The position numbers were made by a program, and so were the translations under genes. Shown in pieces: positions 3,127 to 20,744 of a stretch of DNA of 21,980 nt; within the stretch, counting starts at the first letter, position 1; each line of letters starts with the position of its first letter. A model generated the notes under the pieces. It saw only the letters and a list, made by a program, of their open reading frames with translations. It was not told the DNA's origin and ran no database searches. Source of the DNA: a virus (taxonomy: Duplodnaviria > Heunggongvirae > Uroviricota > Caudoviricetes); the IMG/VR virus record IMGVR_UViG_2700989365_000011; one strand, written 5' to 3'.

Positions 3127-3483
3127 TTATTCGGGGCTATATTTTGTCACCCTGCGTATCCGCGCTTTCGCATTACGCTCAATCTGGATTAGCTTTTCTA
3201 TATTTTTTCGCCTTTCCCGCTCCTCCTGGCGCAAGAGCCTTACATCATCTGCCAGTCTGGTTTCTCTTTTCGCCACAGAGAGCATCCAGTCAAATGGCTC
3301 CACAACTGCACCGCAAATTTTACAGCGGACCTGACGCTCTTTTTCGTCAACCCGTACAGAGGCGTGATGGCAATATGGTCTTTCCGATGGCTCATAAAGA
3401 AAATTAACCTGATTACGAGGGTCATCCTCTTTTACCGGAAATAAAACGATATTGCTTAACTCATCTTCTGGTTTTATTTCCAT
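3127..3483 (-). CDS. Prophage protein of unknown function with Cys/His zinc-ribbon-like motif and basic coiled-coil C-terminus
   Basis: 118 aa from the ATG at 3483 (MEIKPEDEL...), with a GGAG-like Shine-Dalgarno upstream. The six-frame ORF extends to 3540 but that start abuts the upstream stop. Contains CHH...CKIC and an R/E/K-rich tail. No paralog in the Rac copy. Confidence 0.5.
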   Translation of the reverse strand: MEIKPEDELSNIVLFPVKEDDPRNQVNFLYEPSERPYCHHASVRVDEKERQVRCKICGAVVEPFDWMLSVAKRETRLADDVRLLRQEERERRKNIEKLIQIERNAKARIRRVTKYSPE

Positions 3484-3540
3484 GCTCCTCTCCTTTGATG
3501 CGAATGCCAGCGGTAATTGAAGCCTGATAGCTAATTTCAC

Positions 3541-3963
3541 TCACAGTACCGCCTCCTGAAAATCACCCTGATAGAAAGCCGGTACACGCTGCATAACTTC
3601 ACTCTTCCGGCACTCGCGACAGATTATGTTCTGATGTCTGTCGTAGCGGCGTATTTCTCCGTCCGGTAATGACCAGATAAGGTCCGGATCAACCACAGAT
3701 GGTTTCTTCAGCTTTGCCCTCGAGAGTTTTTTGCGGGCGTTTTGCCAGTCCTTACGCGCCTGTTCAGACGGGAATAACCCGTAGCCAGAGTTGTATACAT
3801 CCCCACTGGCAACCAGCTCTCTGGCGAGAACGCTTATTAAATATCTTGTCGCCCCGGTTTTAGCTTCCAGTTGTCGTAACGTCTCGCGCCCACTCTGGCG
3901 TACGAGTTCAACAACCTGCCCCTTAATTTTTTCCCGCTCTTCCTGTGTAAATACTTTTGCCAT
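3541..3963 (-). CDS. Conserved lambdoid prophage protein, unknown function
   Basis: 140 aa from the ATG at 3963 (MAKVFTQEE...), GGGGG Shine-Dalgarno upstream; the listed ORF start at 3978 is a TTG. Near-identical paralog at 10223-10639 except for the C-terminal ~12 residues. Confidence 0.6.
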   Translation of the reverse strand: MAKVFTQEEREKIKGQVVELVRQSGRETLRQLEAKTGATRYLISVLARELVASGDVYNSGYGLFPSEQARKDWQNARKKLSRAKLKKPSVVDPDLIWSLPDGEIRRYDRHQNIICRECRKSEVMQRVPAFYQGDFQEAVL

Positions 3964-3978
3964 AAGCGCCCCCGGCAA

Positions 3979-4704
3979 TCACTTTTCCGACACAATACGA
4001 CCGGAGGAATCGACAATCTGTCGAACAATATCCCGGTGCTTGTTCAGCTCCCGCAGCGCGGCGCAGACTCGCTCCCACTTCTGGACATGATTTTTCGCCC
4101 GACGCAGTTCGCGGTTTGCCATATGCAGCGATGGTAAAACCAGGTCATCCGCTTGCGTTTCGGTGAACGATGGCAACGACTGCACAATGTCCGCCACAGT
4201 TTCTGTTTTAATTTCTTCCTGTGTTGCAGCTTCCTGTACCGGTAACGCAACACCTGCTGGCTGAGGAAAGACTTTACCATCCGTTTCCGCTATGGATGCG
4301 GCTTTCGGCTCTGCCGGTAAATCAGCGCCCGGTATGCAGTACCGAAATTTACCGCCCTGATTCACGCGAATCAGACGCCCTTTGCTGATTGCCATGGCCA
4401 GCGATGAATTCGCCCGGCGGGAGGTAATCCCGAACATCAGTGCCAGCTCATCCGCCGTTTGTGGGCCATGTTGTTCAATCGCCTCAGTCAGCATTTGCGC
4501 TGTCACTTTCGGTACCGGTGACACTGGTTCACTTTCACCAGCCTGAATCAGCCACCACATCGAACCCTTGTTATCCGCTTCACCACGGCGCTTCAGTTTC
4601 CACAGTTCGTTGACCGCATCTTCACGGCTGATTCCAAGGCGGGACGCCACCACATGTGAAGAGGCTCTTTTCAGTGCTTTCAGTGCGTCAAATACAGTTT
4701 CCAT
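3979..4704 (-). CDS. Prophage protein with winged-helix-like N-terminal region, unknown function
   Basis: 241 aa from the ATG at 4704 (METVFDALK...), GGAGG Shine-Dalgarno upstream. The C-terminal ~115 aa are nearly identical to the paralog at 10655-11416; the N-terminal halves diverge. Confidence 0.6.
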
Positions 4705-4725
4705 TAAAACATCCTCCAACAAAAA

Positions 4726-5472
4726 TTACTTCACAACTCCCGGAAAGCTGACATTTGAACGCCAGCTATCCCAGTTAAACGTCACCCACCGACAACCGTT
4801 CATGGTCATGCGGTCCATAATCCTCTCACCAAGAAGCGTGCTCATTGCGGCATGATTCAGGTTTGTTAACATCCCGACACTGCACAGTGATGCTGTCCGG
4901 CGATCAATTATCTGGTGCAATACCACCTGCTCGTTTTTCGTCTCCCGCTGAATGCCTATTTCATCCAGGACCAGCAAATCAACCCCGCAAAGCTCCTGTA
5001 AAAATTTTTCACCGGATTTGCCGTTGTCGTAGCTGTCATGCAACACGCTCATGACATCAGACTCGGTGACGATAATCACGCTGCGCCCCTTCGCCATCAG
5101 CCGGTTACCCATCGCCGCTGCAAGGTGATTTTTCCCGGTGCCGGTTTTACCGCTGAACACAAAATTCGTGCACCCGGTCATCAGTTCGTCAGCTATGGAT
5201 TTGGCCTGGCTCAGCGCGTATTTTTGCCCGTCGTTCTGCACCTGATAATTCGCAAACGAGCATTTGCTGTGCAGAGGCTGGATGCCCGAACGATTCAGGA
5301 TTTTTTCCACCCGCAACTGGCGATTCTGGCGGTTAATCTCCTCGCTGCGTTTTCGTCCTTCAGCAAGTTGCCATTCCCGCCACTCCTCCACCGTCCGGTA
5401 CGGTGGAACCGCCCCCTGTGGTGCAAGTCTGTGAATACGTTCAAGAACCCCGGCTGCCGCAATGTTTTTCAT
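4726..5472 (-). CDS. DnaC/IstB-like AAA+ replicative helicase loader
   Basis: 248 aa with Walker A (GKTGTGKNHL) and Walker B (LLVLDEIG). Paralog of 11439-12185. Sits immediately downstream of the O-like gene, as lambda P does. Confidence 0.85.
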   Translation of the reverse strand: MKNIAAAGVLERIHRLAPQGAVPPYRTVEEWREWQLAEGRKRSEEINRQNRQLRVEKILNRSGIQPLHSKCSFANYQVQNDGQKYALSQAKSIADELMTGCTNFVFSGKTGTGKNHLAAAMGNRLMAKGRSVIIVTESDVMSVLHDSYDNGKSGEKFLQELCGVDLLVLDEIGIQRETKNEQVVLHQIIDRRTASLCSVGMLTNLNHAAMSTLLGERIMDRMTMNGCRWVTFNWDSWRSNVSFPGVVK

Positions 5473-5478
5473 GCCACA

Positions 5479-6549
5479 TCACCCCCTGAATCCCGGCGGA
5501 ATTTCGGTATCCGGTTCAGAAATATGATTCACACAACGCTGGTTGTTCGTGCCGCTTACCGGGAGCAACCAGGGGTTTTCAAAATTCCGGTCCGGCCCAA
5601 AAAACGTCGTCGCTCGCTGAACAAATTCCGTTCCCGCTTTCCCGGTCGCCGCCAGGTATCTCGCGTAACGCCTCACACCATCCAGCATGGTCTCTGGTGG
5701 CACCCCCTCGCGCAATCTGGCCTTCCAGGCACTGAATGCGGATTTCTTCGGGTTTGCCCCGGCACGCAACGGGTATTCCCGCCAGACCTGTTCGAACACA
5801 TCCGGATAATCCACTCGTCCCACAGGCTGCCCGGTGTTTTCCGGGGCTACCCGATCGGCTTCCCGCTGAATGGCGGAATCGGCTTCAGGCTGCTGCAGTT
5901 GGAGTGATTGCTCCGGCCTTGCGGTCATCACCTGCTGCACAGCGCCCGAATCGGCTTTCAGCGCATACGCTGAATCGGCTTCCGGTGTCGAGCCTGCTGG
6001 CTGACCAGGATTGACGGTCTGAACATCCCCTGCCTGGTTCGTGGCGTTTTTTACGCCATGGACCATAGTGTTTTGATCTTCTTTATCTGTATCTTTATCT
6101 GTATCTGTCGTGACTCGTCGTGACATGTGCGTGACATTTCGTGACGCGCCGTGACAATCGCCATTTTGTTCCCGCTTTCTTTCCCTCTCTCGCTGCGCCC
6201 TCTTGCGCTCTGCAGGAGATTTTGCGGTTTGCGAAATATTGCCGTTGTCCTCTTTAAGCACCTGGCGTTTTTCCCATCCAGTGATTAAATCACCATCAAG
6301 TACCCGCCCCTGCATCGTCTGCAAAATTGAATCAATTACCTCTTCTGTCACGTCGAGCGCACTTGCCAAATCTTCTGTCGTGACATCAATGTGACCTCGC
6401 GTGACATTTCGTGACGCGCTCACCAGGAGGTGGATATACACTGCCATCACTGTTGCAATTGGCTGCCCTGACACCCTGGCAATTGTTCGCCACTTAGGGT
6501 CATTTGGCATGTCATGCCATAATCTGAGCCAGGCGTTAGCCATACTCAC
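5479..6549 (-). CDS. Replication initiator, lambda O-like
   Basis: 356 aa, located between the YdaT-like gene and the DnaC-like loader. Contains internal iteron arrays. Shares only the C-terminal tail (AIPPGFRG) with the Rac YdaU at 12192-13049. Confidence 0.65.
   Translation of the reverse strand: MSMANAWLRLWHDMPNDPKWRTIARVSGQPIATVMAVYIHLLVSASRNVTRGHIDVTTEDLASALDVTEEVIDSILQTMQGRVLDGDLITGWEKRQVLKEDNGNISQTAKSPAERKRAQRERERKREQNGDCHGASRNVTHMSRRVTTDTDKDTDKEDQNTMVHGVKNATNQAGDVQTVNPGQPAGSTPEADSAYALKADSGAVQQVMTARPEQSLQLQQPEADSAIQREADRVAPENTGQPVGRVDYPDVFEQVWREYPLRAGANPKKSAFSAWKARLREGVPPETMLDGVRRYARYLAATGKAGTEFVQRATTFFGPDRNFENPWLLPVSGTNNQRCVNHISEPDTEIPPGFRG
6081..6155. repeat. Iteron array inside the O-like gene (putative replication origin), cluster 1
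   Basis: Tandem 12-bp CTTTATCTGTAT x2 (6081-6104) followed by five ~10-bp units each ending CGTGAC (6105-6155). Confidence 0.5.
6376..6419. repeat. Iteron array inside the O-like gene, cluster 2
   Basis: Four GTGAC-containing ~10-bp units. The 20-mer CGTGACATTTCGTGACGCGC at 6400-6419 is an exact copy of 6130-6149. Confidence 0.45.
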
Positions 6550-6614
6550 CTCTTCTGATACCGAATCTTTTTACTCACGAGTTGCCGGGAGCGATTCGAT
6601 ATGGCTATTGTCAG

Positions 6615-7040
6615 TCAATGTACTGCCACAGCATTTCCTGCCGGGCCACCACGGTTCATCTGATTGAAACCGGCGATTGCCACTGCGACAAAATCATCAG
6701 CGTCTCTCACCAGTCGTTCATGCGTCTCCACCAGTTCCCGAAAATAAGCTGAACTGTGGCTGCGCATTCGAGCCACCAGCGGAGGTGGCATTGCCCTTTC
6801 GATCGCAGGTAACAACGCCTGAATTTTTTCAACAGCGTCAGGGGTGTCTTTATCCAGCCAACGGAAAATCTTTTGGGTGTTGAGATAAAGCGTGTTGTGC
6901 TTGCTGTCGTTATGCAGAACCGGAAACGTCATTCCCAGTTCGAAATAAACCCTGGTTATTTCAGCTGCCGGAACTTTTTCACCGTCCGGATGCGCCCAGG
7001 CTTTCATCGCCATGCGGATGTGTTCATGCTTGATTTTCAT
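6615..7040 (-). CDS. YdaT-like protein (cII-position gene of Rac-type prophages)
   Basis: 141 aa starting MKIKHEHI..., the same N-terminus as the Rac-copy gene at 13062-13484. ATGA overlap with the upstream Cro-like gene. Confidence 0.7.
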   Translation of the reverse strand: MKIKHEHIRMAMKAWAHPDGEKVPAAEITRVYFELGMTFPVLHNDSKHNTLYLNTQKIFRWLDKDTPDAVEKIQALLPAIERAMPPPLVARMRSHSSAYFRELVETHERLVRDADDFVAVAIAGFNQMNRGGPAGNAVAVH

Positions 7041-7300
7041 GAATCAACCCCCGCCGATGGTTGTGTGTTAGCCTGAAACTCAGCAGGCAAGCCGTCAGTT
7101 GGGTTGGGGTAGGTTTTACTGTCAATCTCATGTGGGGTCACCACCCATCCCGTTGCTTCACACCAACGTAATATTTTTTCTCCTGTAAGTTTTGCACGCC
7201 CCGTTATAACGTGGCTGACCATCCCTTGGGATGCGCCAACAATCTCAGCAAATGAACTCTGGGTTATATGAAAATGATGCAAATATTCTCCAAGATTCAT
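7037..7300 (-). CDS. Cro/YdaS-like HTH regulator
   Basis: 87 aa from the ATG at 7300; the listed ORF start at 7327 is a TTG. Divergent from the cI-like repressor across an operator-containing intergenic region. Confidence 0.7.
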   Translation of the reverse strand: MNLGEYLHHFHITQSSFAEIVGASQGMVSHVITGRAKLTGEKILRWCEATGWVVTPHEIDSKTYPNPTDGLPAEFQANTQPSAGVDS

Positions 7301-7336
7301 AATCCGCCCTATGTGATGTGTTACCAATGCATAATT

Positions 7337-7376
7337 AATAGCACTGTTATTTTTAAAAGTAAATAGTGATACTATT
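7337..7376. promoter_or_regulatory. OR-like operator pair between Cro-like and cI-like genes
   Basis: Two 15-bp palindromes, AATAGCACTGTTATT (7337-7351) and AATAGTGATACTATT (7362-7376), centres 25 bp apart. Confidence 0.45.
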
Positions 7377-7411
7377 TCAAAGTGATTAGCAATCTTATTA
7401 GAATTGGATGT

Positions 7412-7912
7412 ATGAAAAGAAAATCATTGTCAGACACCGACCTCAACGCCGCCAGAAGACTGAAAGAAATCTGGATGGCAAAGAAATCTCAGTTGGGATT
7501 GACTCAGGAACGTGCGGCGGAAATTATGGGGTTTTCAACACAAGGGGCGGTAAGTCACTACCTAAATGGTCAAACCCCACTAAACCTTGAGGCTGTTCTA
7601 AAGTTTGCTGGCTTACTGAAAGTTCCCCCTGAGTCAATCAGGCCAGACATGGTAGATTTGCTGCAAATTGCAAGGATGTATTGTCGAGAACCACAGCAAG
7701 ATAACATAGTCGCATTACCAGCAGACACAGAACAAACAGAGGATGAACTACCGTTTGCCGTAGAGCCGATGGAACGAGATTTAATCCATACGTTCAGAGC
7801 TTTTCCGAAAGAAGATCAAGAACACATGCTTCAGGAGATGAAAGATAAAAAAGAATCAATGGATCGTACGGTTGCGCGGTGGTTAGCTGCACAAAAAGGC
7901 CGTCGCGCCTAA
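7412..7912 (+). CDS. cI-like XRE-family HTH repressor without a recognisable C-terminal S24 peptidase domain
   Basis: 166 aa from the ATG at 7412 (MKRKSLSDTDL...); a GTG at 7382 is an alternative start. HTH region LTQERAAEIMGFSTQGAVSHYLNG. Immediately upstream of the toxin-antitoxin pair, as in repressor-antitoxin-toxin operons. Confidence 0.75.
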   Translation: MKRKSLSDTDLNAARRLKEIWMAKKSQLGLTQERAAEIMGFSTQGAVSHYLNGQTPLNLEAVLKFAGLLKVPPESIRPDMVDLLQIARMYCREPQQDNIVALPADTEQTEDELPFAVEPMERDLIHTFRAFPKEDQEHMLQEMKDKKESMDRTVARWLAAQKGRRA

Positions 7913-7931
7913 ATCAGAGGAGATATGTAAA

Positions 7932-8126
7932 ATGAGTACAGTCCTTTCCCCAATGGTTTCAGAATTTGAGACAGTTGAGCAAGAAAATAGTTACAACGAA
8001 TGGCTGCGGGCCAAAGTAGCAGCAAGCCTCGCGGATCCCCGCCCGGCGATTCCGCATGATGAGGTAATGGCGGAAATGGAACAAATTATTGCCCAAATTG
8101 CTGCTGCAACTCACAGAGGTGAATAA
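7932..8126 (+). CDS. Antitoxin partnering the ParE-family toxin (PaaA/ParD-like)
   Basis: 64 aa, GAGGAG Shine-Dalgarno 8 nt upstream. Its stop overlaps the toxin ATG (TAATG at 8124-8128). Confidence 0.65.
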   Translation: MSTVLSPMVSEFETVEQENSYNEWLRAKVAASLADPRPAIPHDEVMAEMEQIIAQIAAATHRGE

Positions 8127-8416
8127 TGTTACCCGTTTTATGGCTACCATCTGCTCGTGATGATTTGCGCCAGATCGTAGCCTACATAGCTAAAGAAAAT
8201 CCCGCGGCAGCACGCAGAATGAAAATTCGAATTGAAACATCCGTTTTGCCGCTCACAGAGCATCCTTACCTGTATCCTCCAAGCGAGCGAGTTCTTGGTC
8301 TTCGTGAAATTGTAACTCATCCTAACTACATCATCCTTTACCGAGTAACAGCATCAAGCATAGAAGTAGTAAATATTGTGCATTCTCGAAGACAGTATCC
8401 AGGCAAAAACAGTTAA
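8126..8416 (+). CDS. parE: RelE/ParE-family type II toxin
   Basis: 96 aa with the characteristic C-terminal pattern ...IILYRV...IEVVNIVHSRRQ. Translationally coupled to the upstream antitoxin. Confidence 0.8.
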   Translation: MLPVLWLPSARDDLRQIVAYIAKENPAAARRMKIRIETSVLPLTEHPYLYPPSERVLGLREIVTHPNYIILYRVTASSIEVVNIVHSRRQYPGKNS

Positions 8417-8434
8417 TTATTCCCGCCGACAGAA

Positions 8435-8455
8435 CCACCTTAGGGTGGTTTTTTC
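8435..8455 (+). terminator. Rho-independent terminator after the toxin gene
   Basis: CCACC-TTAG-GGTGG hairpin followed by a T tract. Confidence 0.7.
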
Positions 8456-8472
8456 TTGCCCCAACAAAAAAC

Positions 8473-8515
8473 AATAGCGATGCTATTTACATCAAAAAAA
8501 AATAATGATGCTATT
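8473..8515. promoter_or_regulatory. OL-like operator pair upstream of the ydaF-like operon
   Basis: AATAGCGATGCTATT (8473-8487) and AATAATGATGCTATT (8501-8515), the same 15-bp motif family as the sites at 7337-7376. Confidence 0.45.
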
Positions 8516-8696
8516 GTTTCAGGCGTCAACCCACCCCGCCCCACAGAATGCAGGGCAATACTTCGAGTTACCAGACAGTGGTCAGGGGTTAAGTAGCCAG
8601 CCCGAGGCGTAAGAACATGACGGCAGGGTTCAATCTTTAACTATGCAGCAGGTTTTTTGTTCCGCCACCCCGGCGTTAAGGGGAAATGAGGTCAGC

Positions 8697-8849
8697 ATGG
8701 ATACTATCGATCTTGGCAACAACGAATCTCTGGTGTGCGGCGTGTTCCCTAACCAGGATGGAACGTTTACCGCCATGACGTATACCAAAAGCAAAACGTT
8801 TAAAACCGAATCTGGCGCGCGTTGCTGGTTAGCCAGAAACACTGACTGA
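8697..8849 (+). CDS. YdaF-like small protein (homolog of Rac ydaF at 14670-14825)
   Basis: 50 aa (MDTIDLGNNESLVCGVFPNQDGTFTAMTYTKSKTF...), about 85% identical to the Rac-copy YdaF. GAGG Shine-Dalgarno upstream. Confidence 0.7.
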   Translation: MDTIDLGNNESLVCGVFPNQDGTFTAMTYTKSKTFKTESGARCWLARNTD

Positions 8850-8860
8850 TGAGGCTGACG

Positions 8861-9226
8861 ATGGAATTTAAAGATTTACCGTCTGATGTACAGAAAACAG
8901 CAGCTCATACATTGCATTCTGTGCTGCGAGAAATCGGGAAAGATATTGCAAGCGAGCCAGCAAAAGATCTGGCCCGGAAAATCAAGACCGCTTTCGTTGA
9001 GCTTTATAATGTTGGCACTGACTCTGAAACTGTCGAGACCAAGACCGTAAGTTCACCAATATTCTCACTTGAGCCAAGCGTATTATCAGGTGAAATATGC
9101 ACCGAGATTTCCAGCGAACTGCTTCCGGTAATACGAGAAGCAATTCGCCGTCGCGGTTTGGATGGAAGTTATGATCATGACGTTCTGCAAGTTCTCAGGA
9201 CAATGGTGACTTCACTGGGGATTTGA
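8861..9226 (+). CDS. Unknown acidic, helix-rich 121-aa protein in the pL-like operon
   Basis: ORF from the ATG at 8861 with GAGG 6 nt upstream; the alternative ATG at 8849 overlaps the ydaF-like stop (TGATG). No counterpart in the Rac copy, and no family recognised by eye. Confidence 0.5.
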   Translation: MEFKDLPSDVQKTAAHTLHSVLREIGKDIASEPAKDLARKIKTAFVELYNVGTDSETVETKTVSSPIFSLEPSVLSGEICTEISSELLPVIREAIRRRGLDGSYDHDVLQVLRTMVTSLGI

Positions 9227-9373
9227 TCCCTGCGTCCTCTAAGCTTTTGATATAGCGGTCCTCCAAGAAGCGGTAAATTTTGTCGAAATCATCTTTTCCC
9301 TCTGGTTTATTCAGAGGATTACAGGACCCGTAAGTAGCGGCATACATTTCAACCGTTTGGTAATGACTCCAAC

Positions 9374-9877
9374 TTATTGATAGTGTTTTATGTTCAGATA
9401 ATGCCCGATGACTTTGTCATGCAGCTCCACCGATTTTGAGAACGACAGCGACTTCCGTCCCAGCCGTGCCAGGTGCTGCCTCAGATTCAGGTTATGCCGC
9501 TCAATTCGCTGCGTATATCGCTTGCTGATTACGTGCAGCTTTCCCTTCAGGCGGGATTCATACAGCGGCCAGCCATCCGTCATCCATATCACCACGTCAA
9601 AGGGTGACAGCAGGCTCATAAGACGCCCCAGCGTCGCCATAGTGCGTTCACCGAATACGTGCGCAACAACCGTCTTCCGGAGACTGTCATACGCGTAAAA
9701 CAGCCAGCGCTGGCGCGATTTAGCCCCGACATAGCCCCACTGTTCGTCCATTTCCGCGCAGACGATGACGTCACTGCCCGGCTGTATGCGCGAGGTTACC
9801 GACTGCGGCCTGAGTTTTTTAAGTGACGTAAAATCGTGTTGAGGCCAACGCCCATAATGCGTGCAGTTGCCCGGCAT
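9374..9877 (-). CDS. insB: IS1 InsB (transposase frame; InsAB' is made by frameshifting)
   Basis: 167-aa ORF overlapping the 3' end of insA in a different frame. Confidence 0.9.
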
Positions 9878-10071
9878 CCAACGCCATTCATGGCCATATC
9901 AATGATTTTCTGGTGCGTACCGGGTTGAGAAGCGGTGTAAGTGAACTGCAGTTGCCATGTTTTACGGCAGTGAGAGCAGAGATAGCGCTGATGTCCGGCA
10001 GTGCTTTTGCCGTTACGCACCACCCCGTCAGTAGCTGAACAGGAGGGACAGCTGATAGAAACAGAAGCCAC
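9796..10071 (-). CDS. insA: IS1 InsA
   Basis: 91 aa, [40 protein letters not shown]... Confidence 0.95.
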
Positions 10072-10222: not shown

Positions 10223-10639
10223 CTATAAATACCGAAGATTTCCTTGATAAAATGCCAGTACACGTTTCATAACTTCACTCTTCCGGCACTCGCGACAGAT
10301 TATGTTCTGACGCCTGTCATAGCGGCGTATTTCTCCGTCTGGTAATGACCAGATAAGGTCAGGATCAACCACAACCGTTTTTTTCACCTTTGCCCTGGAT
10401 AGTTTTTTGCGGGCGTTTTTCCAATCCTTACGAGCCTGTTCAGACGGGAATAACCCATAGCCAGAGTTGTATACATCGCCACTGGCAACCAACTCTCTGG
10501 CAAGAATGCTCATCAGATATCTTGTCGCACCTGTCTTGGCCTCCAGTTGCCTTAACGTCTCGCGCCCACTCTGGCGTACCAACTCAACAACCTGCTCCTT
10601 AATTTTTTCACGCTCTTCCTGTGTAAAAACTTTTGCCAT
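10223..10639 (-). CDS. Conserved lambdoid prophage protein, paralog of 3541-3963
   Basis: 138 aa from the ATG at 10639, GGAGG Shine-Dalgarno upstream. The C-terminus differs from the left-prophage copy. Confidence 0.6.
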   Translation of the reverse strand: MAKVFTQEEREKIKEQVVELVRQSGRETLRQLEAKTGATRYLMSILARELVASGDVYNSGYGLFPSEQARKDWKNARKKLSRAKVKKTVVVDPDLIWSLPDGEIRRYDRRQNIICRECRKSEVMKRVLAFYQGNLRYL

Positions 10640-10654
10640 AAGCGCCTCCGGCAA

Positions 10655-11416
10655 TCACTTTTCCGACACAATACGACTGGAGGAATCGACAATCTGTCGG
10701 ACAATATCCCGGTGCTTGTTCAGCTCCCGCAGCGCGGCGCAGACTCGCTCCCACTTCTGGACATGATTTTTCGCCCGACGCAGTTCGCGGTTTGCCATAT
10801 GCAGCGATGGTAAAACTAGGTCATCCGCTTGCGTTTCAGTAAACGATGGCAGCGACTGCACAATGTCCGCCACAGTTTCTGTTTTAATATCTTCCTGTGT
10901 TGCCGCTTCCTGTACTGGTAACGCAACACCGGCTGGCTGAGGAAAGGCTTTACCATCAGTTTCCGCTACCGATGCAGCTTTCGGCTCTGCTGGTAAATTA
11001 TCGCCCGGCATGCAGTAACGAAATTTACTGTTCTGGTTTACGCGAATCAGGCGTCCTTTGCTGATTGCCATTGCCAGCGTTGAAGCAACTTTGCGGGATG
11101 TTGTACCGAACAGCGTAGCCAGTTCATCCGCCGTTTGTGGTCCGCGTTGTTCAATCGTCGCGGTTAAATCGCACTCTGAGATTTTCACTACAGTTGCCGT
11201 GGTGGTTTCTTCCGGCAGTTCTGCCTGCATTGGCTGTTCCTGCTGAACGTTGTTATCAGCCACACGCCAGGTGTACGCGCTTTTATCAACGAAACCAGCT
11301 TTTTTCAGTTCCCATAGTTCGTTCAGCACTTCTTCACGACTGATATCAAGTCGCGCAGCAAGTTCTATGGATGTGGCTTTTCCCATTGCTTTCAGTGCGT
11401 CAAAAACAGTCTCCAT
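10655..11416 (-). CDS. Prophage protein with winged-helix-like N-terminus, paralog of 3979-4704 (ydaW position of Rac)
   Basis: 253 aa from the ATG at 11416 ([13 protein letters not shown]...), GGAGG Shine-Dalgarno upstream. Confidence 0.6.
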
Positions 11417-11438
11417 AAAAATTTCCTCCCGGTAAAAA

Positions 11439-12185
11439 TTACTTCTCAATTCCTGGCTGGACGACATTCGGACGCCAGCTCTCCCAGTTAAAATTCACCC
11501 ATCGCCCGCCGTTCATGGTCATGCGATCCATAATCCGCTCGCCGAGCAATGTTTTCATGGCCTCATAGTTCAGGTTTGTCAGCATCCCCACGCTGCGCAT
11601 CGACGCTGTCCGGCGATCAACAATCTGGTGCAGCACCACCTGCTCGTTTTTCGTCTCGCGCTGAATGCCAATTTCATCAAGAACCAGCAGATCCACTTCG
11701 CATAGTTCCCGCAAAAATTTTTCGCCTGACTGCCCATCGTCATAGCTGGCGTGCAGGGCACTCATAACATCAGCCACGGTAACCACAATCACTGTCTGAC
11801 CGTCTTTCAGCAGGCGATTCCCGATAGCTGCCGCTAAGTGATTCTTCCCGGTACCAGGTTTTCCGCTGAACGCAAAATTTGTACACCCGGTCATCAGTTC
11901 ATCAGCGATGGATTTCGCCTGACTCAACGCGTATCGCTGCGCTTCGTTCTGCACCTGGTAATTCGAAAACGAGCATTTGCGGTGCAATGGCTGGATGCCA
12001 GAGCGATTCAGAATTTTTTCCACCCGCAACTGACGATTCTGACGGTTGATCTCCTCACAACGTTTCTGGCCTTCGGAAAGTTGCCACTCGCGCCACTCCG
12101 CTACCGTCTTGAATGGCGCGGTTACATGTGACGGGGCCAGTCTGCGGATACGTTCAAGAACGTCGCCTGTCGCAATATTTTTCAT
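11439..12185 (-). CDS. ydaV: DnaC-like AAA+ helicase loader
   Basis: 248 aa with Walker A ([10 protein letters not shown]) and Walker B (LLVLDEIG). Symbol assigned from position and length in a Rac-type gene order. Confidence 0.75.
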
Positions 12186-12191
12186 GGTCAG

Positions 12192-13049
12192 TTACCCCCT
12201 GAAGCCTGGCGGGATCGCACTATCCGGTAACGAGACGGTGTTAACCTGTCGGAGTAACGTCTCAGGTCGAACACCTTTCGGCGCGAACAAGCCCTGGTAT
12301 TCATTGGCGATGCTGTGTCGAATCACCTGCTCAGGTGTAAAACCCTGCTGACGGAATTTTTCCAGTTCCCGTATCGCCCCGTTAGCGCCCTGCTCCGTTC
12401 GAATCGGTTTTCGCAATGCCTGGCGAAATTCAACCCACTCACGCCAAAGCGAGACAGAAATCCAGTTCGGCAAAGCAATATCCAGAGGGTCAAACTTTTT
12501 GACACCTCGATTCCCCCGGGGGGGATTTAGGGGGGGATCTGTTTTTAGATCTTTATCTGTATCTTTATTAGTTGCCTTTGTGTTGACATCATGTTCAAAC
12601 ACCACTTCAACATCTGTTTGAACACCTGTTAAATTTCTCTCTTGTTTTGTTTGAACATCTGCTTCCTTTCTGCTTCTTCTGGCCTGAACAGATGCTTTTC
12701 CTGCGGCTGATTTTTTGGTTAATTTTTCCCTGACTGATGCCAGATCTTCCTCAATCCGAAGATGCACCCATTCCTCGCCGTTATCGCAAAAAAACTCCTG
12801 CAAGGATGGTTCAACATCAGCCCATCGCTCGTTAGTCAGACGGGCAATTTTTGCCAGCCTGTTTTTAGGTATTGGCTTTCCTGTTTGCCAGTAATTGAAC
12901 ATCAGCAACAAATACGCACCATGCTCCTCTGCTGACAAATGCATGGTGTCAGCCAGGTAATCAGCTATGTACAGTTGCATGTATGGTAATGCGGCCATAA
13001 TTGCCCCGTATGATGCTGCCCGGTGGCTTAGAATAAGCACAAACAGCAT
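12192..13049 (-). CDS. ydaU: Replication initiator, O-like (DUF1376-type N-terminus)
   Basis: 285 aa, MAALPYMQLYIADYLADTMHLSAEEHGAYLLLMFNYWQTGK... Internal iterons present. Symbol assigned from position and length. Confidence 0.7.
   Translation of the reverse strand: MLFVLILSHRAASYGAIMAALPYMQLYIADYLADTMHLSAEEHGAYLLLMFNYWQTGKPIPKNRLAKIARLTNERWADVEPSLQEFFCDNGEEWVHLRIEEDLASVREKLTKKSAAGKASVQARRSRKEADVQTKQERNLTGVQTDVEVVFEHDVNTKATNKDTDKDLKTDPPLNPPRGNRGVKKFDPLDIALPNWISVSLWREWVEFRQALRKPIRTEQGANGAIRELEKFRQQGFTPEQVIRHSIANEYQGLFAPKGVRPETLLRQVNTVSLPDSAIPPGFRG
12513..12657. repeat. Iteron-like repeats inside ydaU (putative Rac origin)
   Basis: CCCCCGGGGGGG G-tract pair (12513-12537), a CTTTATCTGTATCTTTAT block like that of the left prophage, and three copies of a 10-mer in alternating orientation: TGTTCAAACA (12592-12601), TGTTTGAACA (12615-12624, 12648-12657). 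Confidence 0.45.
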
Positions 13050-13061
13050 GGAAACTTTTGC

Positions 13062-13484
13062 TTAATGAACAATGACAGAATCGTCGGAAGACCCGCCGCC
13101 GCTGAAATGCGCTTTCCGGTAAACGGCTTGGACTGCATCATCATGCGCATCAATTGCCGTACTTAACGCTTCCTGCGCCGCCAGTAATGCACGGCGTTCC
13201 AGGGTATCGAAGATGCAGAGTCGGTGACGCAGCTCGCGCGGAAGGATTGCCAGAATTGCTGGGATCAGCTTCTGAATTTTTTCTCTTTGCGTTTTCGTTT
13301 CACCTTTCAACCAACGGTGATAGATATTCTGCTGATTATTCCAGTCCTTGCCTGGTACCAGGGGCAATTCGCCGCCCCCCTGGCGCAGATATTCTTCAGT
13401 AATGGCATTGGCTACCCATGCCTGCCCTTTTTCGGCTGCCAGGGCTAACAACACTGACTCGATGTGCTCATGCTTGATTTTCAT
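13062..13484 (-). CDS. ydaT: YdaT-like protein
   Basis: 140 aa starting MKIKHEHI...; ATGA overlap with the upstream gene. Symbol assigned by synteny. Confidence 0.65.
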   Translation of the reverse strand: MKIKHEHIESVLLALAAEKGQAWVANAITEEYLRQGGGELPLVPGKDWNNQQNIYHRWLKGETKTQREKIQKLIPAILAILPRELRHRLCIFDTLERRALLAAQEALSTAIDAHDDAVQAVYRKAHFSGGGSSDDSVIVH

Positions 13485-13735
13485 GAATCAACTCCCATCA
13501 GCTTTTTCGTAGTAGTTTTATTTCTGCCAATAGTTAAAATTACATCAGCAGAAAATAATCCGTTTGATGCATGAGCGATTTTTTCAGCGTAATTTGTTTC
13601 GCCGGTATATTCTGTGCGAGGCAATTTTCCGTTATCCATCCATTTGTAGATTGCTCTTTGGCTGACACCACAAACGTCGGCCACAACAGAAACGCGAACA
13701 GTTTTGATTACATCTTCAAGTGTTTTCTGGTTCAT
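13481..13735 (-). CDS. ydaS: Cro/YdaS-like regulator
   Basis: 84 aa from the ATG at 13735 (MNQKTLEDV...). The longer listed ORF begins at 13807 and would overlap racR. Symbol assigned by synteny; start uncertain. Confidence 0.55.
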   Translation of the reverse strand: MNQKTLEDVIKTVRVSVVADVCGVSQRAIYKWMDNGKLPRTEYTGETNYAEKIAHASNGLFSADVILTIGRNKTTTKKLMGVDS

Positions 13736-13759
13736 ATCACCCTCACAATGTGAACTTTG

Positions 13760-13790
13760 AGTACATGCTATAACAGAACTGACAGTACAT
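13760..13790. promoter_or_regulatory. Candidate RacR operator half-sites in the ydaS-racR intergenic region
   Basis: AGTACAT at 13760-13766 and 13784-13790 (24-bp spacing); the same heptamer recurs downstream of racR. Confidence 0.35.
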
Positions 13791-13796
13791 TCAAGA

Positions 13797-14234
13797 GTGA
13801 ATATCATTGAACTTATGGTTCATGAAGATAAAGCGCGTAAAGAGTTCGCCAGTAGGCTTGCGCTAGCCTGTGAAAACGCTGGTTATGAACAACATGGAAG
13901 GCAGGCAGAAATTGCCCGTCGAATGAAATTAACACCAAAAGCGGTTAGCAAATGGTTTAATGGCGAAACAATTCCTCGCCGAGAGAAATTAAGGGAATTA
14001 GCAACACTCATTGGAACAACACCAACCTATCTTTTGGGAGAGGATACAGAAGAAAGTGGACAGGTACGTTTCTATCAGGAGTTAAATCCAAGACAAAAAA
14101 TCATCATTGACCTTCTGGACGAGCTCCCTGACAGTGAGACAGATGAACTTTTAAAAACTCTTGAGGAGAAAAAACAGAAGTACAATGCAATTTACGAAGA
14201 GCTAGCACGAAAGAAAAAACAAAAAGCCTCTTAA
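13797..14234 (+). CDS. racR: XRE-family HTH repressor (Rac repressor position)
   Basis: 145 aa from the GTG at 13797, or 139 aa from the ATG at 13815. HTH region GRQAEIARRMKLTPKAVSKWFNG. No S24 peptidase domain. Symbol assigned by synteny with ydaG/ydaF/sieB. Confidence 0.65.
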   Translation: MNIIELMVHEDKARKEFASRLALACENAGYEQHGRQAEIARRMKLTPKAVSKWFNGETIPRREKLRELATLIGTTPTYLLGEDTEESGQVRFYQELNPRQKIIIDLLDELPDSETDELLKTLEEKKQKYNAIYEELARKKKQKAS

Positions 14235-14309
14235 ACCAGCATAAATCCGGTAGCGTCCCCCTCCGGGTTTGTGCTTCACTTTATCCCATCTCATTTTTTT
14301 ACACACAAA

Positions 14310-14350
14310 ATGTACTTATAGTACTTTACATCAATGAACACAAAGTACAT
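14310..14350. promoter_or_regulatory. Candidate operator cluster downstream of racR, upstream of the ydaG leader
   Basis: ATGTACT (14310-14316, inverted), AGTACTT (14320-14326) and AGTACAT (14344-14350). Confidence 0.35.
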
Positions 14351-14524
14351 TATATACCTACCAACCCACCCCGCCCCACAGAACGCAGGGCAATACTTCG
14401 AGTTACCAGGCAGTGGTCAGGGGTTAAGTAGCCAGCCCGAGGCGTATGAACATGACGGCAGGGTTCAGATTTTGCAGTGCAGCAGGTTTCAGTTCCGCCA
14501 CCCGGCGTTAAGGGGAGAGATAAG

Positions 14525-14659
14525 ATGGTGCATTACGAAGTAGTTCAGTATTTGATGGATTGTTGCGGTATCACTTACAACCAGGCTGTGCAGGCTTTAC
14601 GCAGCAACGACTGGGATCTCTGGCAGGCAGAAGTCGCTATACACAGCAACAAGATGTGA
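14525..14659 (+). CDS. ydaG: Rac prophage small protein YdaG
   Basis: 44 aa, MVHYEVVQYLMDCCGITYNQAVQALRSNDWDLWQAEVAIHSNKM. Confidence 0.75.
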   Translation: MVHYEVVQYLMDCCGITYNQAVQALRSNDWDLWQAEVAIHSNKM

Positions 14660-14669
14660 GATTCGCAAA

Positions 14670-14825
14670 ATGCAAAAAATCGACCTCGGCAACAACGAAT
14701 CCCTGGTGTGCGGCGTGTTCCCCAACCAGGATGGAACGTTCACTGCCATGACGTATACCAAAAGCAAAACATTTAAAACCGAAACTGGTGCGCGCCGATG
14801 GTTGGAGAAGCACACAGTAAGCTAA
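14670..14825 (+). CDS. ydaF: Rac prophage small protein YdaF
   Basis: 51 aa, MQKIDLGNNESLVCGVFPNQDGTFTAMTYTKSKTFKTETGARRWLEKHTVS. Convergent 4-nt overlap with sieB. Confidence 0.75.
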   Translation: MQKIDLGNNESLVCGVFPNQDGTFTAMTYTKSKTFKTETGARRWLEKHTVS

Positions 14826-15310
14826 CGATTAAAACGTCTACTCCTGCTGTTCCAGAATAACTTCATAAAATGGGAGTATTTTTCGGTGACGAGATAATAA
14901 GAACAGTTTGCGCTATCACTCTGATGTTGAATGATGCCCTTCCGTTCTAATTTTTTCATAACCGGGTTACGGCAAGGAGAAGTGATAATAAGATTTCCTG
15001 TTTTAAGGAAATCTTTAAATACAGCGATTTCTTTCTCAGATAAACGAAGCAATACTCGTTGCTCTGGTAGTAATGAATAATGCTTTTGAATATGTGCTCG
15101 CAATCTTGAGAAGGAAATGGCGACCACGAAAGAAAAGGCAAAAACGATAATCTGAAAGAGCCAAGGTATTTCAGTATAAGCATTGAATGCGACAGTAAAC
15201 TCTTTCGGTATCAGCCAGAGAGTGAGACCAAAAATGATAATCGTATACATAAGTATTTCGAGTGGCTCGTTAGCAAAAAGTTTCAACAATGGAGTAAATA
15301 CATCCAACAT
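14822..15310 (-). CDS. sieB: Superinfection exclusion protein B
   Basis: 162 aa from the ATG at 15310 (MLDVFTPLLKLFANEPLEILMYTIIIFGLTLWLIPK...), with hydrophobic membrane segments. Confidence 0.85.
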   Translation of the reverse strand: MLDVFTPLLKLFANEPLEILMYTIIIFGLTLWLIPKEFTVAFNAYTEIPWLFQIIVFAFSFVVAISFSRLRAHIQKHYSLLPEQRVLLRLSEKEIAVFKDFLKTGNLIITSPCRNPVMKKLERKGIIQHQSDSANCSYYLVTEKYSHFMKLFWNSRSRRFNR

Positions 15311-15751
15311 ATCAATAACTCTCAACTGTAAGGGTATTGAAATGTTAACACAAGCTCTCGCTGTAGGGGTATAGCCGAGACCACCGAAGCCCGGAGGTGG
15401 TGAAATAAAACCGGGCACAACACGAAGGCGCATTTCCGATATCCATAAAGAGTCGGTCTTGTCTGTTAAATTTAAATGGTGGGAGTGCGCCTCCGGTTGT
15501 AAATAACGACATTGCTGTGTGTAGTCCTGGCGGCATCAGTTTTTTTCTTGAAGTTCGGCTGATGTCCGCCCTTTTTAAAGTGAATTTTGTGATGCGGTGA
15601 ATGCGGCTAAGCGCACGTGGCACAGTTAAAAGTCATGTTAGTCCTTATTGGTTTGGGTGGGAAAGCCGACTGTAATTGTTAACTGGTTGCAGTCACCTGG
15701 AGGCACCAGGCACCGCATCAACAAAGTTCATTTGTAAAAATGGAGATAATT

Positions 15752-15973
15752 ATGATTGCACATCACTTCGGAACTGATGAAATACCACGTCAGTGTGTGA
15801 CTCCTGGCGATTATGTTCTTCATGAAGGCCGGACATATATTGCCTCGGCAAACAATATTAAAAAGCGAAAACTATATATTCGTAACCTGACCACAAAAAC
15901 ATGCATTACTGACCGCATGATTAAAGTCTTCCTCGGTCGTGATGGTTTACCTGTAAAGGCGGAGTCATGGTGA
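15752..15973 (+). CDS. kilR: Rac prophage killing protein KilR
   Basis: 73 aa, [46 protein letters not shown]...; GGAG Shine-Dalgarno upstream. Confidence 0.85.
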
Positions 15974-16143
15974 TGACTAAGAAAATAAAATGTGCTTACC
16001 ACCTTTGCAAAAAAGACGTTGAAGAAAGCAAAGCTATTGAAAGAATGCTTCACTTCATGCACGGGATTTTATCAAAAGACGAACCGAGAAAATATTGCAG
16101 TGAAGCTTGTGCCGAAAAAGACCAGATGGCACATGAACTTTAA
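15973..16143 (+). CDS. ydaE: Rac prophage zinc-binding small protein YdaE
   Basis: 56 aa, [56 protein letters not shown]. Start overlaps the kilR stop (TGATG). Below the 60-aa ORF-track cutoff; found by reading the sequence. Confidence 0.8.
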   Translation: MTKKIKCAYHLCKKDVEESKAIERMLHFMHGILSKDEPRKYCSEACAEKDQMAHEL

Positions 16144-16217
16144 TTAATTGACTATTCGAAACTGAATTTATGCCAGAAATGGCAGGGATTCGCTCAACCT
16201 TAATTAAGGAGAAAAAC

Positions 16218-16493
16218 ATGATTACCAATTATGAAGCCACTGTTGTAACTACCGATGACATTGTTCACGAGGTGAATCTGGAAGGAAAGCGCATTGGCTA
16301 CGTAATTAAAACAGAAAATAAAGAAACCCCATTCACTGTGGTTGATATCGATGGTCCATCAGGCAACGTAAAAACACTTGATGAAGGTGTCAAAAAAATG
16401 TGCCTGGTGCATATCGGAAAGAATCTGCCCGCAGAAAAAAAAGCCGAATTTCTGGCAACTCTAATTGCAATGAAATTAAAAGGTGAAATCTGA
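16218..16493 (+). CDS. racC: Rac prophage protein RacC
   Basis: 91 aa, MITNYEATVVTTDDIVHEVNLEGKRIGYVIKTENKETPFTVVDIDG...; AAGGAG Shine-Dalgarno upstream. Confidence 0.85.
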   Translation: MITNYEATVVTTDDIVHEVNLEGKRIGYVIKTENKETPFTVVDIDGPSGNVKTLDEGVKKMCLVHIGKNLPAEKKAEFLATLIAMKLKGEI

Positions 16494-20743: not shown

Positions 20744-20744
20744 T

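Follow-up and report, generated by a model that had tools for sequence, protein, structure and literature searches.

The paaR-paaA-parE modules of Escherichia coli O157:H7 combine a toxin–antitoxin (TA) pair with a repressor gene, and in their original description, as given in a later review, PaaR appears as a plain transcriptional regulator of the three-gene operon (Hallez 2010 via PMC4803016). For the system of prophage CP-933P it was then shown experimentally that PaaR2 is the immunity repressor and has its operators in common with a Cro-like gene (Jurenas 2021, PMC8630535), and the paaA2-parE2 pair has been described as replacing rexA/rexB, with PaaR2 replacing CI (Prolic-Kalinsek 2023, PMC9986795). 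PaaR2 represses PR and PL, does not respond to mitomycin C and was described as being without sequence similarity to CI (PMC8630535). Binding, repression, bistability, leaderless start and addiction have all been shown experimentally for this homologue (PMC8630535, PMC9986795). In the O157 systems the toxicity of ParE is neutralised by PaaA, which ClpAP/ClpXP degrade, and the locus is addictive (PMC8630535; PMC4803016), and PaaA1 and PaaA2 are reported not to cross-protect (Hallez 2010 via review PMC4803016). For ParE2, toxin activity was not detected in either transcriptional state (PMC8630535). Here we describe a further member of this family.

Results and Discussion

The window analysed, which is the whole stretch of 21,980 nucleotides of virus record IMGVR_UViG_2700989365_000011, carries the remnant of a lambdoid prophage, almost certainly from Shigella sonnei. 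On its plus strand we found a gene for a predicted paaR-type immunity repressor (7412-7912, 166 aa from the ATG), followed by a paaA-family antitoxin gene (7932-8126, 64 aa) and a parE-family toxin gene (8126-8416, 96 aa). The 19 bp between paaR and paaA (7913-7931) include the Shine-Dalgarno sequence GAGGAG (plus strand, 7917-7922), read from the sequence 9 nt 5' of the paaA ATG. The junction of paaA and parE is TAATG (8124-8128), so that the A closing the paaA stop codon also opens the parE ATG. A GTG at 7382, proposed as paaR start by mechanical ORF calling, was ruled out as the homologues, RefSeq and the lambda CI alignment all start at the ATG at 7412.

An intrinsic terminator for the three genes is predicted on the plus strand at about 8425-8459, and its stem is kept in relatives. 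The stem core (8431-8452, GAACCACC/GGTGGTTT) is followed by a U-run, and direct folding gave -15.1 kcal/mol with z = -3.2 against shuffled sequences. This terminator is absent from the list of a simple terminator scan, probably because its stem draws in the U-run. According to the scans and the fold there is a single sigma-70-like promoter 5' of paaR and a single terminator 3' of parE, and the promoter scan gave no convincing internal promoter within paaR-paaA-parE. A promoter-like match on the minus strand (8529-8502; TTGACG, 16 bp, CATTAT) pointing antisense into parE was taken as a chance match because the promoter scan gave no more sites than shuffled sequence. When 6400-9400 was compared with Rfam at E ≤ 1, the result was a lone sub-threshold chance match (17 bits vs a gathering score of 40) and no known RNA in the operon or the PL leader. 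The first-pass annotation had already described these reading frames with the 19-bp gap, a strong Shine-Dalgarno sequence, a 64-aa antitoxin, a ParE-family toxin overlapping it by TAATG and a strong terminator, and all of this holds.

To take the repressor apart, PaaR consists of a lambda-CI-like N-domain (about residues 2-90), a linker (93-111) and a C-terminal helical hairpin (119-165). The N-domain matches the lambda CI N-domain (1lmb/1rio) over residues 2-81 with a phmmer E of 3e-9, and the top 10 Foldseek matches of the AlphaFold model are all lambda CI N-domains (TM 0.81-0.93, rmsd 1.1-2.0 Å, about 39% identity); a search of the PDB found no structure of PaaR itself. In the alignment with lambda CI, PaaR retains Q44, N52 (lambda numbering) and the basic arm at the N-terminus, and E33 and E37 of PaaR align with E34 and D38, the acidic positive-control residues of CI. 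Judged from these matches, the PaaR N-domain is a true homologue of the lambda CI N-domain and defines what we predict to be a third immunity type. After this domain just 76 residues follow, which are modelled as a disordered linker and two helices without beta structure, the model being helical throughout. The only Pfam matches of PaaR are HTH_3/HTH_31, and Peptidase_S24 gave no match at E ≤ 0.01. PaaR is predicted to act like CI and yet is not a repressor of the S24 family. Because the C-terminal hairpin stands in place of an S24 domain, the switch would not be directly RecA-inducible, which agrees with the earlier description of a cI-like HTH repressor lacking an autopeptidase and any other cleavable domain.

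The likeness of PaaR to its O157 counterparts is limited to the C-terminal ~44-64 residues, of which 64 aa align to PaaR1 at 56% identity (E 6e-23) and 44 aa to PaaR2 at 52% (E 5e-15). The N-terminal HTH belongs to another lineage and is not homologous in sequence to that of PaaR1 or PaaR2. The C-terminal region of DicA also bears a distant similarity to that of PaaR (51 aa aligned at 29% identity, E 2e-6; NCBIfam DicA 7e-8).

PaaA matches Pfam PF21217 PaaA2 (3e-23, above the curated cut-off) and PaaA2 in the PDB (3zbe, 1.4e-23), and ParE matches Pfam ParE_toxin (1.8e-17) and ParE2 in the PDB (5cw7, 6.7e-37). PaaA is 78% identical to O157 PaaA1 and 67% to PaaA2, and ParE 83% to ParE1 and 67% to ParE2; by these sequence identities the pair is nearer to PaaA1/ParE1 than to PaaA2/ParE2, and the resemblance to paaR-paaA-parE modules named in the first-pass annotation is one of true homology. 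Beyond PaaA2 and NCBIfam NF050103, each covering 33-45 residues, PaaA gave no match in Pfam or NCBIfam, and no DNA-binding domain was among its matches. Neither PaaR, PaaA, ParE and YdaT nor a 125-aa ORF matched a PADLOC defence model, and a defence role is therefore without homology support. Pfam, NCBIfam and PADLOC likewise revealed no homology of the three products to RexA or RexB. The rexAB slot named in the first-pass annotation is the placement published for paaA2-parE2 (PMC9986795), and paaA-parE is a positional analogue only of rexA-rexB.

The neighbouring genes fit an immunity region. Divergent from paaR lies a ydaS-like gene as Cro analogue (minus strand, 7037-7300, 87 aa; HTH_3; PHROG 35 transcriptional repressor, 8e-17), followed by a ydaT-like gene as CII analogue (minus strand, 6615-7040, 141 aa; Pfam YdaT_toxin, 5e-9; PHROG 163 'CII-like transcriptional activator', 3e-40). 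Compared with the two O157 systems, YdaT shows 77-81% identity and YdaS just 28-30%, a low value that agrees with a different type of immunity. On the other side, ydfA (plus strand, 8697-8849; Pfam DUF1391, 3e-28; named ydfA in relatives) is the first gene of the PL operon. No further repressor candidate is present among the ORFs between the replication genes and ydfA. The leftward operon is truncated by an IS1 (minus strand, 9374-10071; InsA/InsB-type ORFs; other S. sonnei genomes have IS1 Pfam domains in the corresponding place), which joins the prophage remnant to a Rac-like prophage whose genes lie beyond it. Elsewhere the window carries prophage defence cargo, namely a BsuBI/PstI-type restriction-modification pair (1-2912) and SieB (14822-15433).

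A 15-bp palindrome, AATAGN5CTATT, occurs in three copies between paaR and ydaS and in two copies just after the parE terminator. It was first spotted by eye and then searched as a pattern, as a generic repeat finder run on the intergenic regions did not detect these operators because the palindrome arms are short. With at most one mismatch there are 4 sites in the 22-kb window, all at the two expected places, compared to 0.45 expected by chance, and 4 were reached in 0 of 100 shuffles. The putative OR1-like operator (AATAGCACTGTTATT, 7337-7351), whose half-sites are kept in relatives, covers the -10 of PR. The OR2-like operator with perfect arms (AATAGTGATACTATT, 7362-7376) lies over the PR -35, abuts the PRM -35 and has its centre 42 bp 5' of the paaR ATG. 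Inside the PRM spacer a degenerate OR3-like site (ATTAGCAATCTTATT, 7385-7399) has 2 mismatches to the palindrome; it is the weakest of the five, and matches of equal level arise by chance elsewhere in the window. Of the distal pair, the perfect OL2-like site (AATAGCGATGCTATT, 8473-8487) overlaps the PL -35 and the OL1-like site (AATAATGATGCTATT, 8501-8515) the PL -10. In relatives with a PaaR 78-80% identical, the half-sites are conserved and the central bases vary. The occurrence of one palindrome at both OR and PL fits the earlier suggestion that this gene encodes the immunity repressor and shares its operators with the Cro-like gene.

The predicted PR (minus strand, 7335-7363) was read from the sequence and consists of a -35 TTTACT (7363-7358), a 17-bp spacer and TGc-TATTAA (-10 at 7340-7335), the same -35/extended -10 layout as that of PL. 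PRM was predicted by the promoter scan (plus strand, 7376-7404; TTCAAA, 17 bp, TAGAAT); just 7 nt separate its -10 from the paaR start codon, no Shine-Dalgarno sequence is present, and this geometry fits a leaderless paaR mRNA. The same type of geometry is found in CP-933P (GATAAT, 6 nt, ATG), where the paaR2 mRNA is leaderless by 5' RACE (PMC8630535), and at the paaR1 locus (TAAAAT, 6 nt, ATG). The predicted PL (plus strand, 8486-8517; TTTACA, 20-bp spacer, TGc-TATTGT) holds an A-tract in its spacer (8494-8502, A9). E. coli relatives have a spacer of 17 bp (A6) and S. sonnei genomes one of 18-20 bp (A7-A9), and given its 20 bp PL may be crippled in the window. For the conserved ~160-nt PL leader a consensus fold of six loci gave a covariation term of about zero, with one pair changing on both sides; we claim no RNA structure here because the variation is too small. 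Spanning the ydaS stop and the ydaT start we found an exact YdaT operator OM (TTGATTTTCATGAATCAA, 7030-7047), with zero mismatches to 5'-TTGATTN6AATCAA-3', the footprinted YdaT site (PMC9986795), and at the end of ydaS as in CP-933P. A second exact copy is located in the Rac-like region (13474-13491).

The five-gene block of ydaT-ydaS and paaR-paaA-parE recurs in many genomes of E. coli and Shigella, and the order O-like gene, ydaT, ydaS / paaR, paaA, parE, ydfA is common to CP-933P, CP-933M-type and other loci. Compared to the O145 and M1/5 alleles, paaR, paaA and parE show dN/dS of 0.05-0.09 and are thus under strong purifying selection. Because of this recurrence and these dN/dS values the block is not a chance arrangement, and paaR-paaA-parE is predicted to form a real three-gene operon within the immunity region of a decayed prophage. 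In the assembly collection, 6211 blocks list exactly this ParE protein. Eight S. sonnei genomes have a 1.4-kb core that, apart from A-tract length, departs from the window by no more than a single base change, and the DNA downstream of the core is rearranged by IS1. The phage genome collection contains no sequenced phage with the paaR-paaA-parE allele of the window, and the paaR2-type module was found there in phage Evi only.

In order to place the locus we compared it with two O157:H7 systems, the paaR2 system of CP-933P/Sp12 and a second O157 copy which, differing from the ParE2 sequence in the PDB, was taken as the paaR1 system; in the literature paaR1-paaA1-parE1 is assigned to CP-933M. 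With paaR2-paaA2-parE2 it has in common the three-gene order with tight spacing and terminator, the location in an immunity region, where the module diverges from ydaS-ydaT and lies upstream of an O-like gene for replication, several common operators at OR with a second set at PL, a PRM -10 right before the ATG, the lack of S24 and the YdaT operator at the ydaS/ydaT junction (PaaA 67%, ParE 67%, YdaT 77% and the C-terminal 44 aa of PaaR 52% identical). In contrast, the N-terminal DNA-binding domains are unrelated in sequence (166 aa, starting MKRKSLS, vs 123 aa, starting MQKKE, in PaaR2), the CP-933P operators are 18-bp palindromes with the half-site GTTTAGTAA and not 15-bp AATAGN5CTATT, and YdaS of CP-933P is just 28% identical. 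The closest characterised TA pair is that of paaR1-paaA1-parE1 (PaaA 78%, ParE 83%, C-terminal 64 aa of PaaR 56%), which is also followed by the ydfA-ydfB leftward operon, but PaaR1 carries yet another N-terminal HTH domain and its YdaS is 30% identical.

Compared to lambda cI-rexA-rexB, the repressor N-domain is homologous, PRM and PR diverge over three operators with a distal OL/PL, two cargo genes are co-transcribed with the repressor (in the window judged from gene layout) and the repressor mRNA is leaderless (in the window predicted). The differences are a short helical hairpin instead of the S24 autopeptidase C-domain, a ParE-type TA cargo unrelated to RexA/RexB, unrelated YdaS/YdaT replacing Cro/CII, and operators of 15 bp instead of 17 bp. 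DicA-DicC of Qin in E. coli K-12 has the same position and divergent layout, with the repressor followed by ydfA-ydfB-ydfC-dicB, but no TA pair lies between dicA and ydfA, which would fit an insertion of paaA-parE into an immunity region of this type. Canonical ParD-ParE also pairs a ParE-fold toxin with a small labile protein antitoxin encoded directly upstream. There, however, ParD binds DNA by a ribbon-helix-helix and autoregulates, whereas PaaA of the window has no DNA-binding domain and the module leaves transcriptional control to a separate repressor within a phage switch. The operon is thus a new allele of a known system, whose architecture and regulatory logic have already been worked out for the O157:H7 relatives.

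We consider it very likely that the window carries a third immunity type of the PaaR-PaaA-ParE module in a lambdoid remnant, with PaaR as CI analogue and an addictive TA pair. Gene identities, homology, operator repeats, promoter geometry and purifying selection were observed in the window, and functional statements on its allele are inferred. In the proposed circuit the PaaR N-domain would bind AATAGN5CTATT at the three OR and two OL sites and would repress PR (ydaS-ydaT-replication genes) and PL (ydfA onward). At the OR2-like site it would probably stimulate its own leaderless PRM transcript, and at high concentration it would shut off PRM via the OR3-like site. Oligomerisation and cooperativity would presumably depend on the C-terminal hairpin, which is common to PaaR1, PaaR2 and, more distantly, DicA. 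YdaS would compete with PaaR for the same operators, and YdaT would bind OM and drive a PRE-like promoter. Carried on the repressor transcript in the position of lambda rexA-rexB, paaA-parE would supply a labile antitoxin sequestering ParE, a toxin predicted to damage DNA or poison topoisomerase, and a cell that lost its immunity region or had it replaced would then die. The purifying selection on the genes (dN/dS 0.05-0.07) lends indirect support to a toxic ParE, neutralisation by PaaA and addiction. As PaaR2 has a different N-terminal DNA-binding domain and different operators, operator occupancy order, PRM activation and bistability are extrapolated from it. With the prophage truncated by IS1, there may be no viable phage left for this 'immunity' to control.

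Alternatively, paaA-parE might chiefly be anti-phage cargo for abortive infection or exclusion and a functional equivalent of RexAB, with a superinfecting phage causing loss of PaaA and release of ParE. The rexA-rexB slot on the lysogenic repressor transcript (PMC9986795 and synteny) and the restriction-modification pair and SieB of the same window speak for such a role, which is also compatible with addiction; as the three products match no PADLOC model and the sole phenotype reported for a homologue is plasmid stabilisation by post-segregational killing (PMC8630535), we regard it as rather unlikely to be the chief one. Still less probable is an inert relic in a dead prophage that is not expressed or not toxic. 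IS1 does truncate the prophage, which is now joined to a Rac-like element, its PL spacer has drifted to 20 bp and the activity of the homologous ParE2 was undetectable in steady state (PMC8630535), but all three genes are full length, their dN/dS is low (0.05-0.09), the exact ParE recurs in the 6211 assembly blocks and the core is near invariant in S. sonnei despite the adjacent IS1 rearrangement.

The first description of PaaR simply as an operon regulator (PMC4803016) would suit a dedicated TA regulator, or 'split antitoxin', with immunity coming from another gene. We find this very improbable: the palindrome recurs over a PL-like promoter after the terminator, where pure autoregulation would make it superfluous, paaR sits in the cI/dicA position divergent from the Cro-like gene, the PaaR N-domain shares homology with lambda CI, a second repressor candidate is missing between the replication genes and ydfA, and PaaR2 represses PR and PL as well (PMC8630535).

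Conclusion

In summary, reading the raw sequence recovered an architecture that several experimental papers had established, and it serves mainly as a positive control that opens no new question. With this allele the PaaR-PaaA-ParE family gains a third immunity specificity, and as the N-domain of its repressor is demonstrably homologous to lambda CI, the analogy of PaaR and CI becomes a partial homology. Three types of N-terminal module have been seen on the PaaR hairpin, namely the lambda-CI type of the window, the PaaR1 type and the PaaR2 type, and some PaaR relatives of 244 aa carry two HTH modules in tandem. We offer as a speculation with a small chance of being right that PaaR-type repressors arise by swapping unrelated N-terminal DNA-binding modules on a constant C-terminal hairpin, together with the PL A-tract as a slippage-prone knob. 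The constant hairpin would then be the part travelling with paaA-parE, and the A-tract (A6 to A9 across strains) could tune or silence the leftward kil/dicB operon in Shigella sonnei. The near invariance of the core in eight S. sonnei genomes amid IS1 scrambling, together with the thousands of assembly blocks that list its ParE, fits the published proposal that the TA pair stabilises the immunity region and could be used as a test of it. If the modular swap is true, the window allele would be a natural third immunity specificity with which to test how the TA pair polices replacement of the immunity region.

Results and Discussion

In the immunity region, the first-pass annotation had proposed a repressor–antitoxin–toxin operon, and ORF calling found all three genes at the claimed positions on the plus strand: paaR (7412-7912, 166 aa counted from the ATG), paaA (7932-8126, 64 aa) and parE (8126-8416, 96 aa). 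The expected strong Shine-Dalgarno is present as GAGGAG in the 19-bp gap (7913-7931), 9 nt ahead of the paaA ATG, paaA and parE share TAATG at 8124-8128, and the terminator behind the toxin gene folds as a GC-rich hairpin with a U-run (~8425-8459, -15.1 kcal/mol, z = -3.2). Divergent from paaR lies the Cro-like ydaS (7037-7300, minus strand), followed by a ydaT-like gene (6615-7040, minus strand). PaaA matches Pfam PaaA2 (3e-23) and the solved PaaA2 structure 3zbe (1.4e-23), and ParE matches Pfam ParE_toxin (1.8e-17) and the solved E. coli O157 ParE2 5cw7 (6.7e-37).

Hallez et al. 2010 (as cited in PMC4803016 and PMC8630535) described paaR-paaA-parE as a toxin-antitoxin system of three components, of which O157:H7 has two paralogues that do not cross-react. 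We compared our operon with both, the paaR1-type copy (L001) and the paaR2-type locus of prophage CP-933P/Sp12 (L003), the latter found via the primer published for this prophage. The suspected likeness to the O157 modules is borne out by homologous antitoxin and toxin, with identities to types 1 and 2 of 78% and 67% for PaaA and 83% and 67% for ParE; the values are 81% and 77% for YdaT and 30% and 28% for YdaS.

The repressor is a mosaic of a lambda-CI-type N-domain and a PaaR1/PaaR2-like C-terminus. Residues 2-90 are a true homologue of the lambda CI N-domain (sequence search, E 3e-9 to 1lmb/1rio), and in a Foldseek search with an AlphaFold model (mean pLDDT 79) lambda CI N-domains take all ten top places (TM 0.81-0.93, rmsd 1.1-2.0 Å, ~39% identity). 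The relation to PaaR2 that BLASTP was expected to reveal holds for the C-terminal 44 residues (52%, E 5e-15) but not for the rest of the protein, which does not align. Against PaaR1 only the C-terminal 64 residues align (56%, E 6e-23), and this region is also distantly similar to K-12 DicA (29%, E 2e-6). In the model, five helices make up the N-terminal part, residues 93-111 form a disordered linker and residues 119-165 a two-helix hairpin; beta structure, and with it an S24 fold, is absent, and Pfam detects only HTH_3/HTH_31 and no Peptidase_S24, as the first-pass annotation had stated. In a multiple alignment the N-terminal HTH modules that precede the hairpin are of at least three unrelated kinds, and in some 244-aa proteins two such modules stand in tandem before it. 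In the sequence alignment PaaR E33 and E37 match acidic residues of lambda CI that we take to be E34 and D38. Through these two residues lambda CI contacts sigma. Proteins of 240-255 aa from metagenome assemblies (P0013, P0018 and others) combine the lambda-CI-like N-domain of PaaR, a PaaR1-like HTH domain and the common C-terminal hairpin, in this order; this tandem two-HTH form suggests that domains are gained and lost as the family evolves.

Two clusters, of five sites in all, share the 15-bp palindrome AATAGN5CTATT: three sites lie between paaR and ydaS (OR-like; 7337-7351, 7362-7376 and the degenerate 7385-7399) and two just past the parE terminator (OL-like; 8473-8487 and 8501-8515). Allowing at most one mismatch, the 22-kb window holds four matches, all at these candidate operators, against a chance expectation of 0.45, and 100 shuffles never gave as many. 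In relatives with PaaR 78-80% identical the AATAG/CTATT arms are conserved and the centre is variable. For CP-933P, where PaaR2, YdaS and YdaT are the analogues of CI, Cro and CII, overlapping PaaR2 and YdaS operators have been footprinted between the divergent promoters, and both proteins also repress a PL promoter (PMC8630535). Our three intergenic palindromes match this layout and would be the operators predicted to be common to repressor and Cro-like gene.

The promoter geometry, as read from the sequence, resembles that of lambda. The -10 of the predicted PRM (TTCAAA, 17 bp, TAGAAT) ends 7 nt short of the A of the paaR ATG, and the paaR start region has no Shine-Dalgarno; the layout is equal in the paaR1-type locus (TAAAAT, 6 nt, ATG) and in paaR2 (GATAAT, 6 nt, ATG), which is leaderless by 5' RACE and N-terminal sequencing (PMC8630535). 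The OR2-like site, centred 42 bp 5' of the paaR ATG, abuts the predicted PRM -35. By our own reading, the OR1- and OR2-like sites overlie a predicted PR (minus strand; TTTACT, 17 bp, TGc-TATTAA) and both OL-like sites a predicted PL (TTTACA, spacer, TGc-TATTGT).

The PL spacer contains an A-tract (8494-8502, between the two OL operators) whose length differs across the genomes compared (the window, L002, L007-L014): E. coli FDAARGOS_944 has A6 and a 17-bp spacer, two S. sonnei genomes have A7, linked to an A-to-G change at position 7371 within the OR2-like operator, five genomes have A8, and the window shares A9 and a 20-bp spacer with one further genome. The variation may reflect true slippage that weakens PL, or in part homopolymer sequencing error. 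A minus-strand promoter-like match (8529-8502; TTGACG, 16 bp, CATTAT), oriented to read antisense into parE and overlapping the OL sites and the A-tract, is probably due to chance. The ~160 nt from PL to ydfA (8520-8690) are nearly invariant in heteroimmune prophages (this allele, CP-933P, paaR1-type, O145, M1/5) and better conserved than the flanking operators; the stretch has no Rfam match and varies too little for a fold test, and it may serve the leftward operon as a leader element, nut-like or of another sort.

The YdaT operator TTGATTN6AATCAA, footprinted for YdaT of CP-933P (PMC9986795), is present with zero mismatches at the end of ydaS (7030-7047), the same place as in CP-933P. A second, Rac-type immunity region (13062-14234) comprises ydaT (13062-13484, minus), ydaS (13481-13807, minus) and a racR-like HTH gene ending at 14234 (plus) that, as claimed for the Rac repressor, has no S24 domain. 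An identical operator, TTGATTTTCATGAATCAA, lies at its ydaS/ydaT junction (13474-13491), and because both regions carry the site, cross-talk of the two YdaT proteins could be possible.

The window is a chimera of two prophage segments. The paaR remnant comprises replication genes (3127-6549) and the immunity region with ydfA and a 125-aa ORF (6615-9226), and the Rac-like segment (10223-21980) carries replication genes, its own immunity region, sieB, recE, recT and an integrase. At the far end of the paaR remnant lies a restriction-modification cargo (1-2912, minus), in which an Eco57I/N6-type methyltransferase (1080-2912) is paired with a BsuBI/PstI-type endonuclease (1-1083) whose ORF continues beyond the edge of the window. 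IS1 (9374-10071) cuts the leftward operon past the 125-aa ORF (8849-9226, PHROG 33007) and links both segments; IS1 occupies this position in other S. sonnei genomes too, with differing DNA beyond. The remnant no longer has an integrase or the remaining genes of its leftward operon (dicB, exonuclease), all of which are intact in a near-identical prophage of E. coli FDAARGOS_944 adjoining a tRNA-Ser gene. Each segment has one block of DUF977, DUF1627 and a DnaC/IstB-like ATPase (3541-5472 and 10223-12185; same orientation, ~6.7 kb apart), a pair of paralogous blocks through which the two elements could undergo homologous recombination.

PaaR is 99-100% identical to proteins labelled Shigella sonnei by NCBI, and the exact ParE protein occurs in 6211 assembly-collection blocks. 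A paaA-parE homologue is found in 842 of 5426 complete E. coli genomes, this allele (at least 99% identity) in only two. No sequenced phage in the phage genome collection carries this allele; phage Evi has a module of the paaR2 type, which shows the architecture to be present in a phage isolate.

What the present analysis establishes is the identity of the genes, the repeats and the promoter geometry, whereas all activities proposed here trace back to the homologue in CP-933P. By analogy with it, PaaR oligomers would keep PR and PL closed and PRM active, and PaaA and ParE would be supplied by the same leaderless transcript as PaaR, with labile PaaA sequestering ParE. Were the region lost or replaced, PaaA synthesis would stop and ParE would be set free; the paaR2 locus is bistable and addictive, with a proposed role in guarding the immunity region from replacement (PMC8630535). 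The expectation that the repressor is not RecA-inducible agrees with the missing S24 domain and with PaaR2, which is without the peptidase motif and unresponsive to mitomycin C (PMC8630535). As PaaR has no autocleavage domain, any switching must be driven by growth phase or by YdaS and YdaT competing with it, as described for CP-933P.

The second cluster of operators, at PL, contradicts the view that the repressor only autoregulates its operon and, together with the CI-homologous N-domain, argues that the regulator doubles as the immunity repressor, as first suggested. For CP-933P, Prolic-Kalinsek et al. 2023 (PMC9986795) state that paaA2-parE2 stands in for rexA/rexB and PaaR2 for CI. The position in the rexAB slot makes a Rex-like anti-phage role of paaA-parE possible, but homology lends it no support. 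That the module is an inert relic is contradicted by strong purifying selection (dN/dS against the O145 and M1/5 alleles of 0.08 for paaR, 0.05-0.07 for paaA and 0.05-0.06 for parE; dS > 1) and by the invariance of the core: in the eight genomes read, 7285-8700 has no more than a single base change relative to the window, A-tract length apart, whereas the DNA right of the 121/125-aa ORF varies from genome to genome, mostly opening with IS1 at a fixed point.

Conclusion

Every interpretive element of the first-pass finding is right and already published for the homologue. The operon is a new allele, representing a third immunity type, within a class of systems that is known and has been characterised by experiment.
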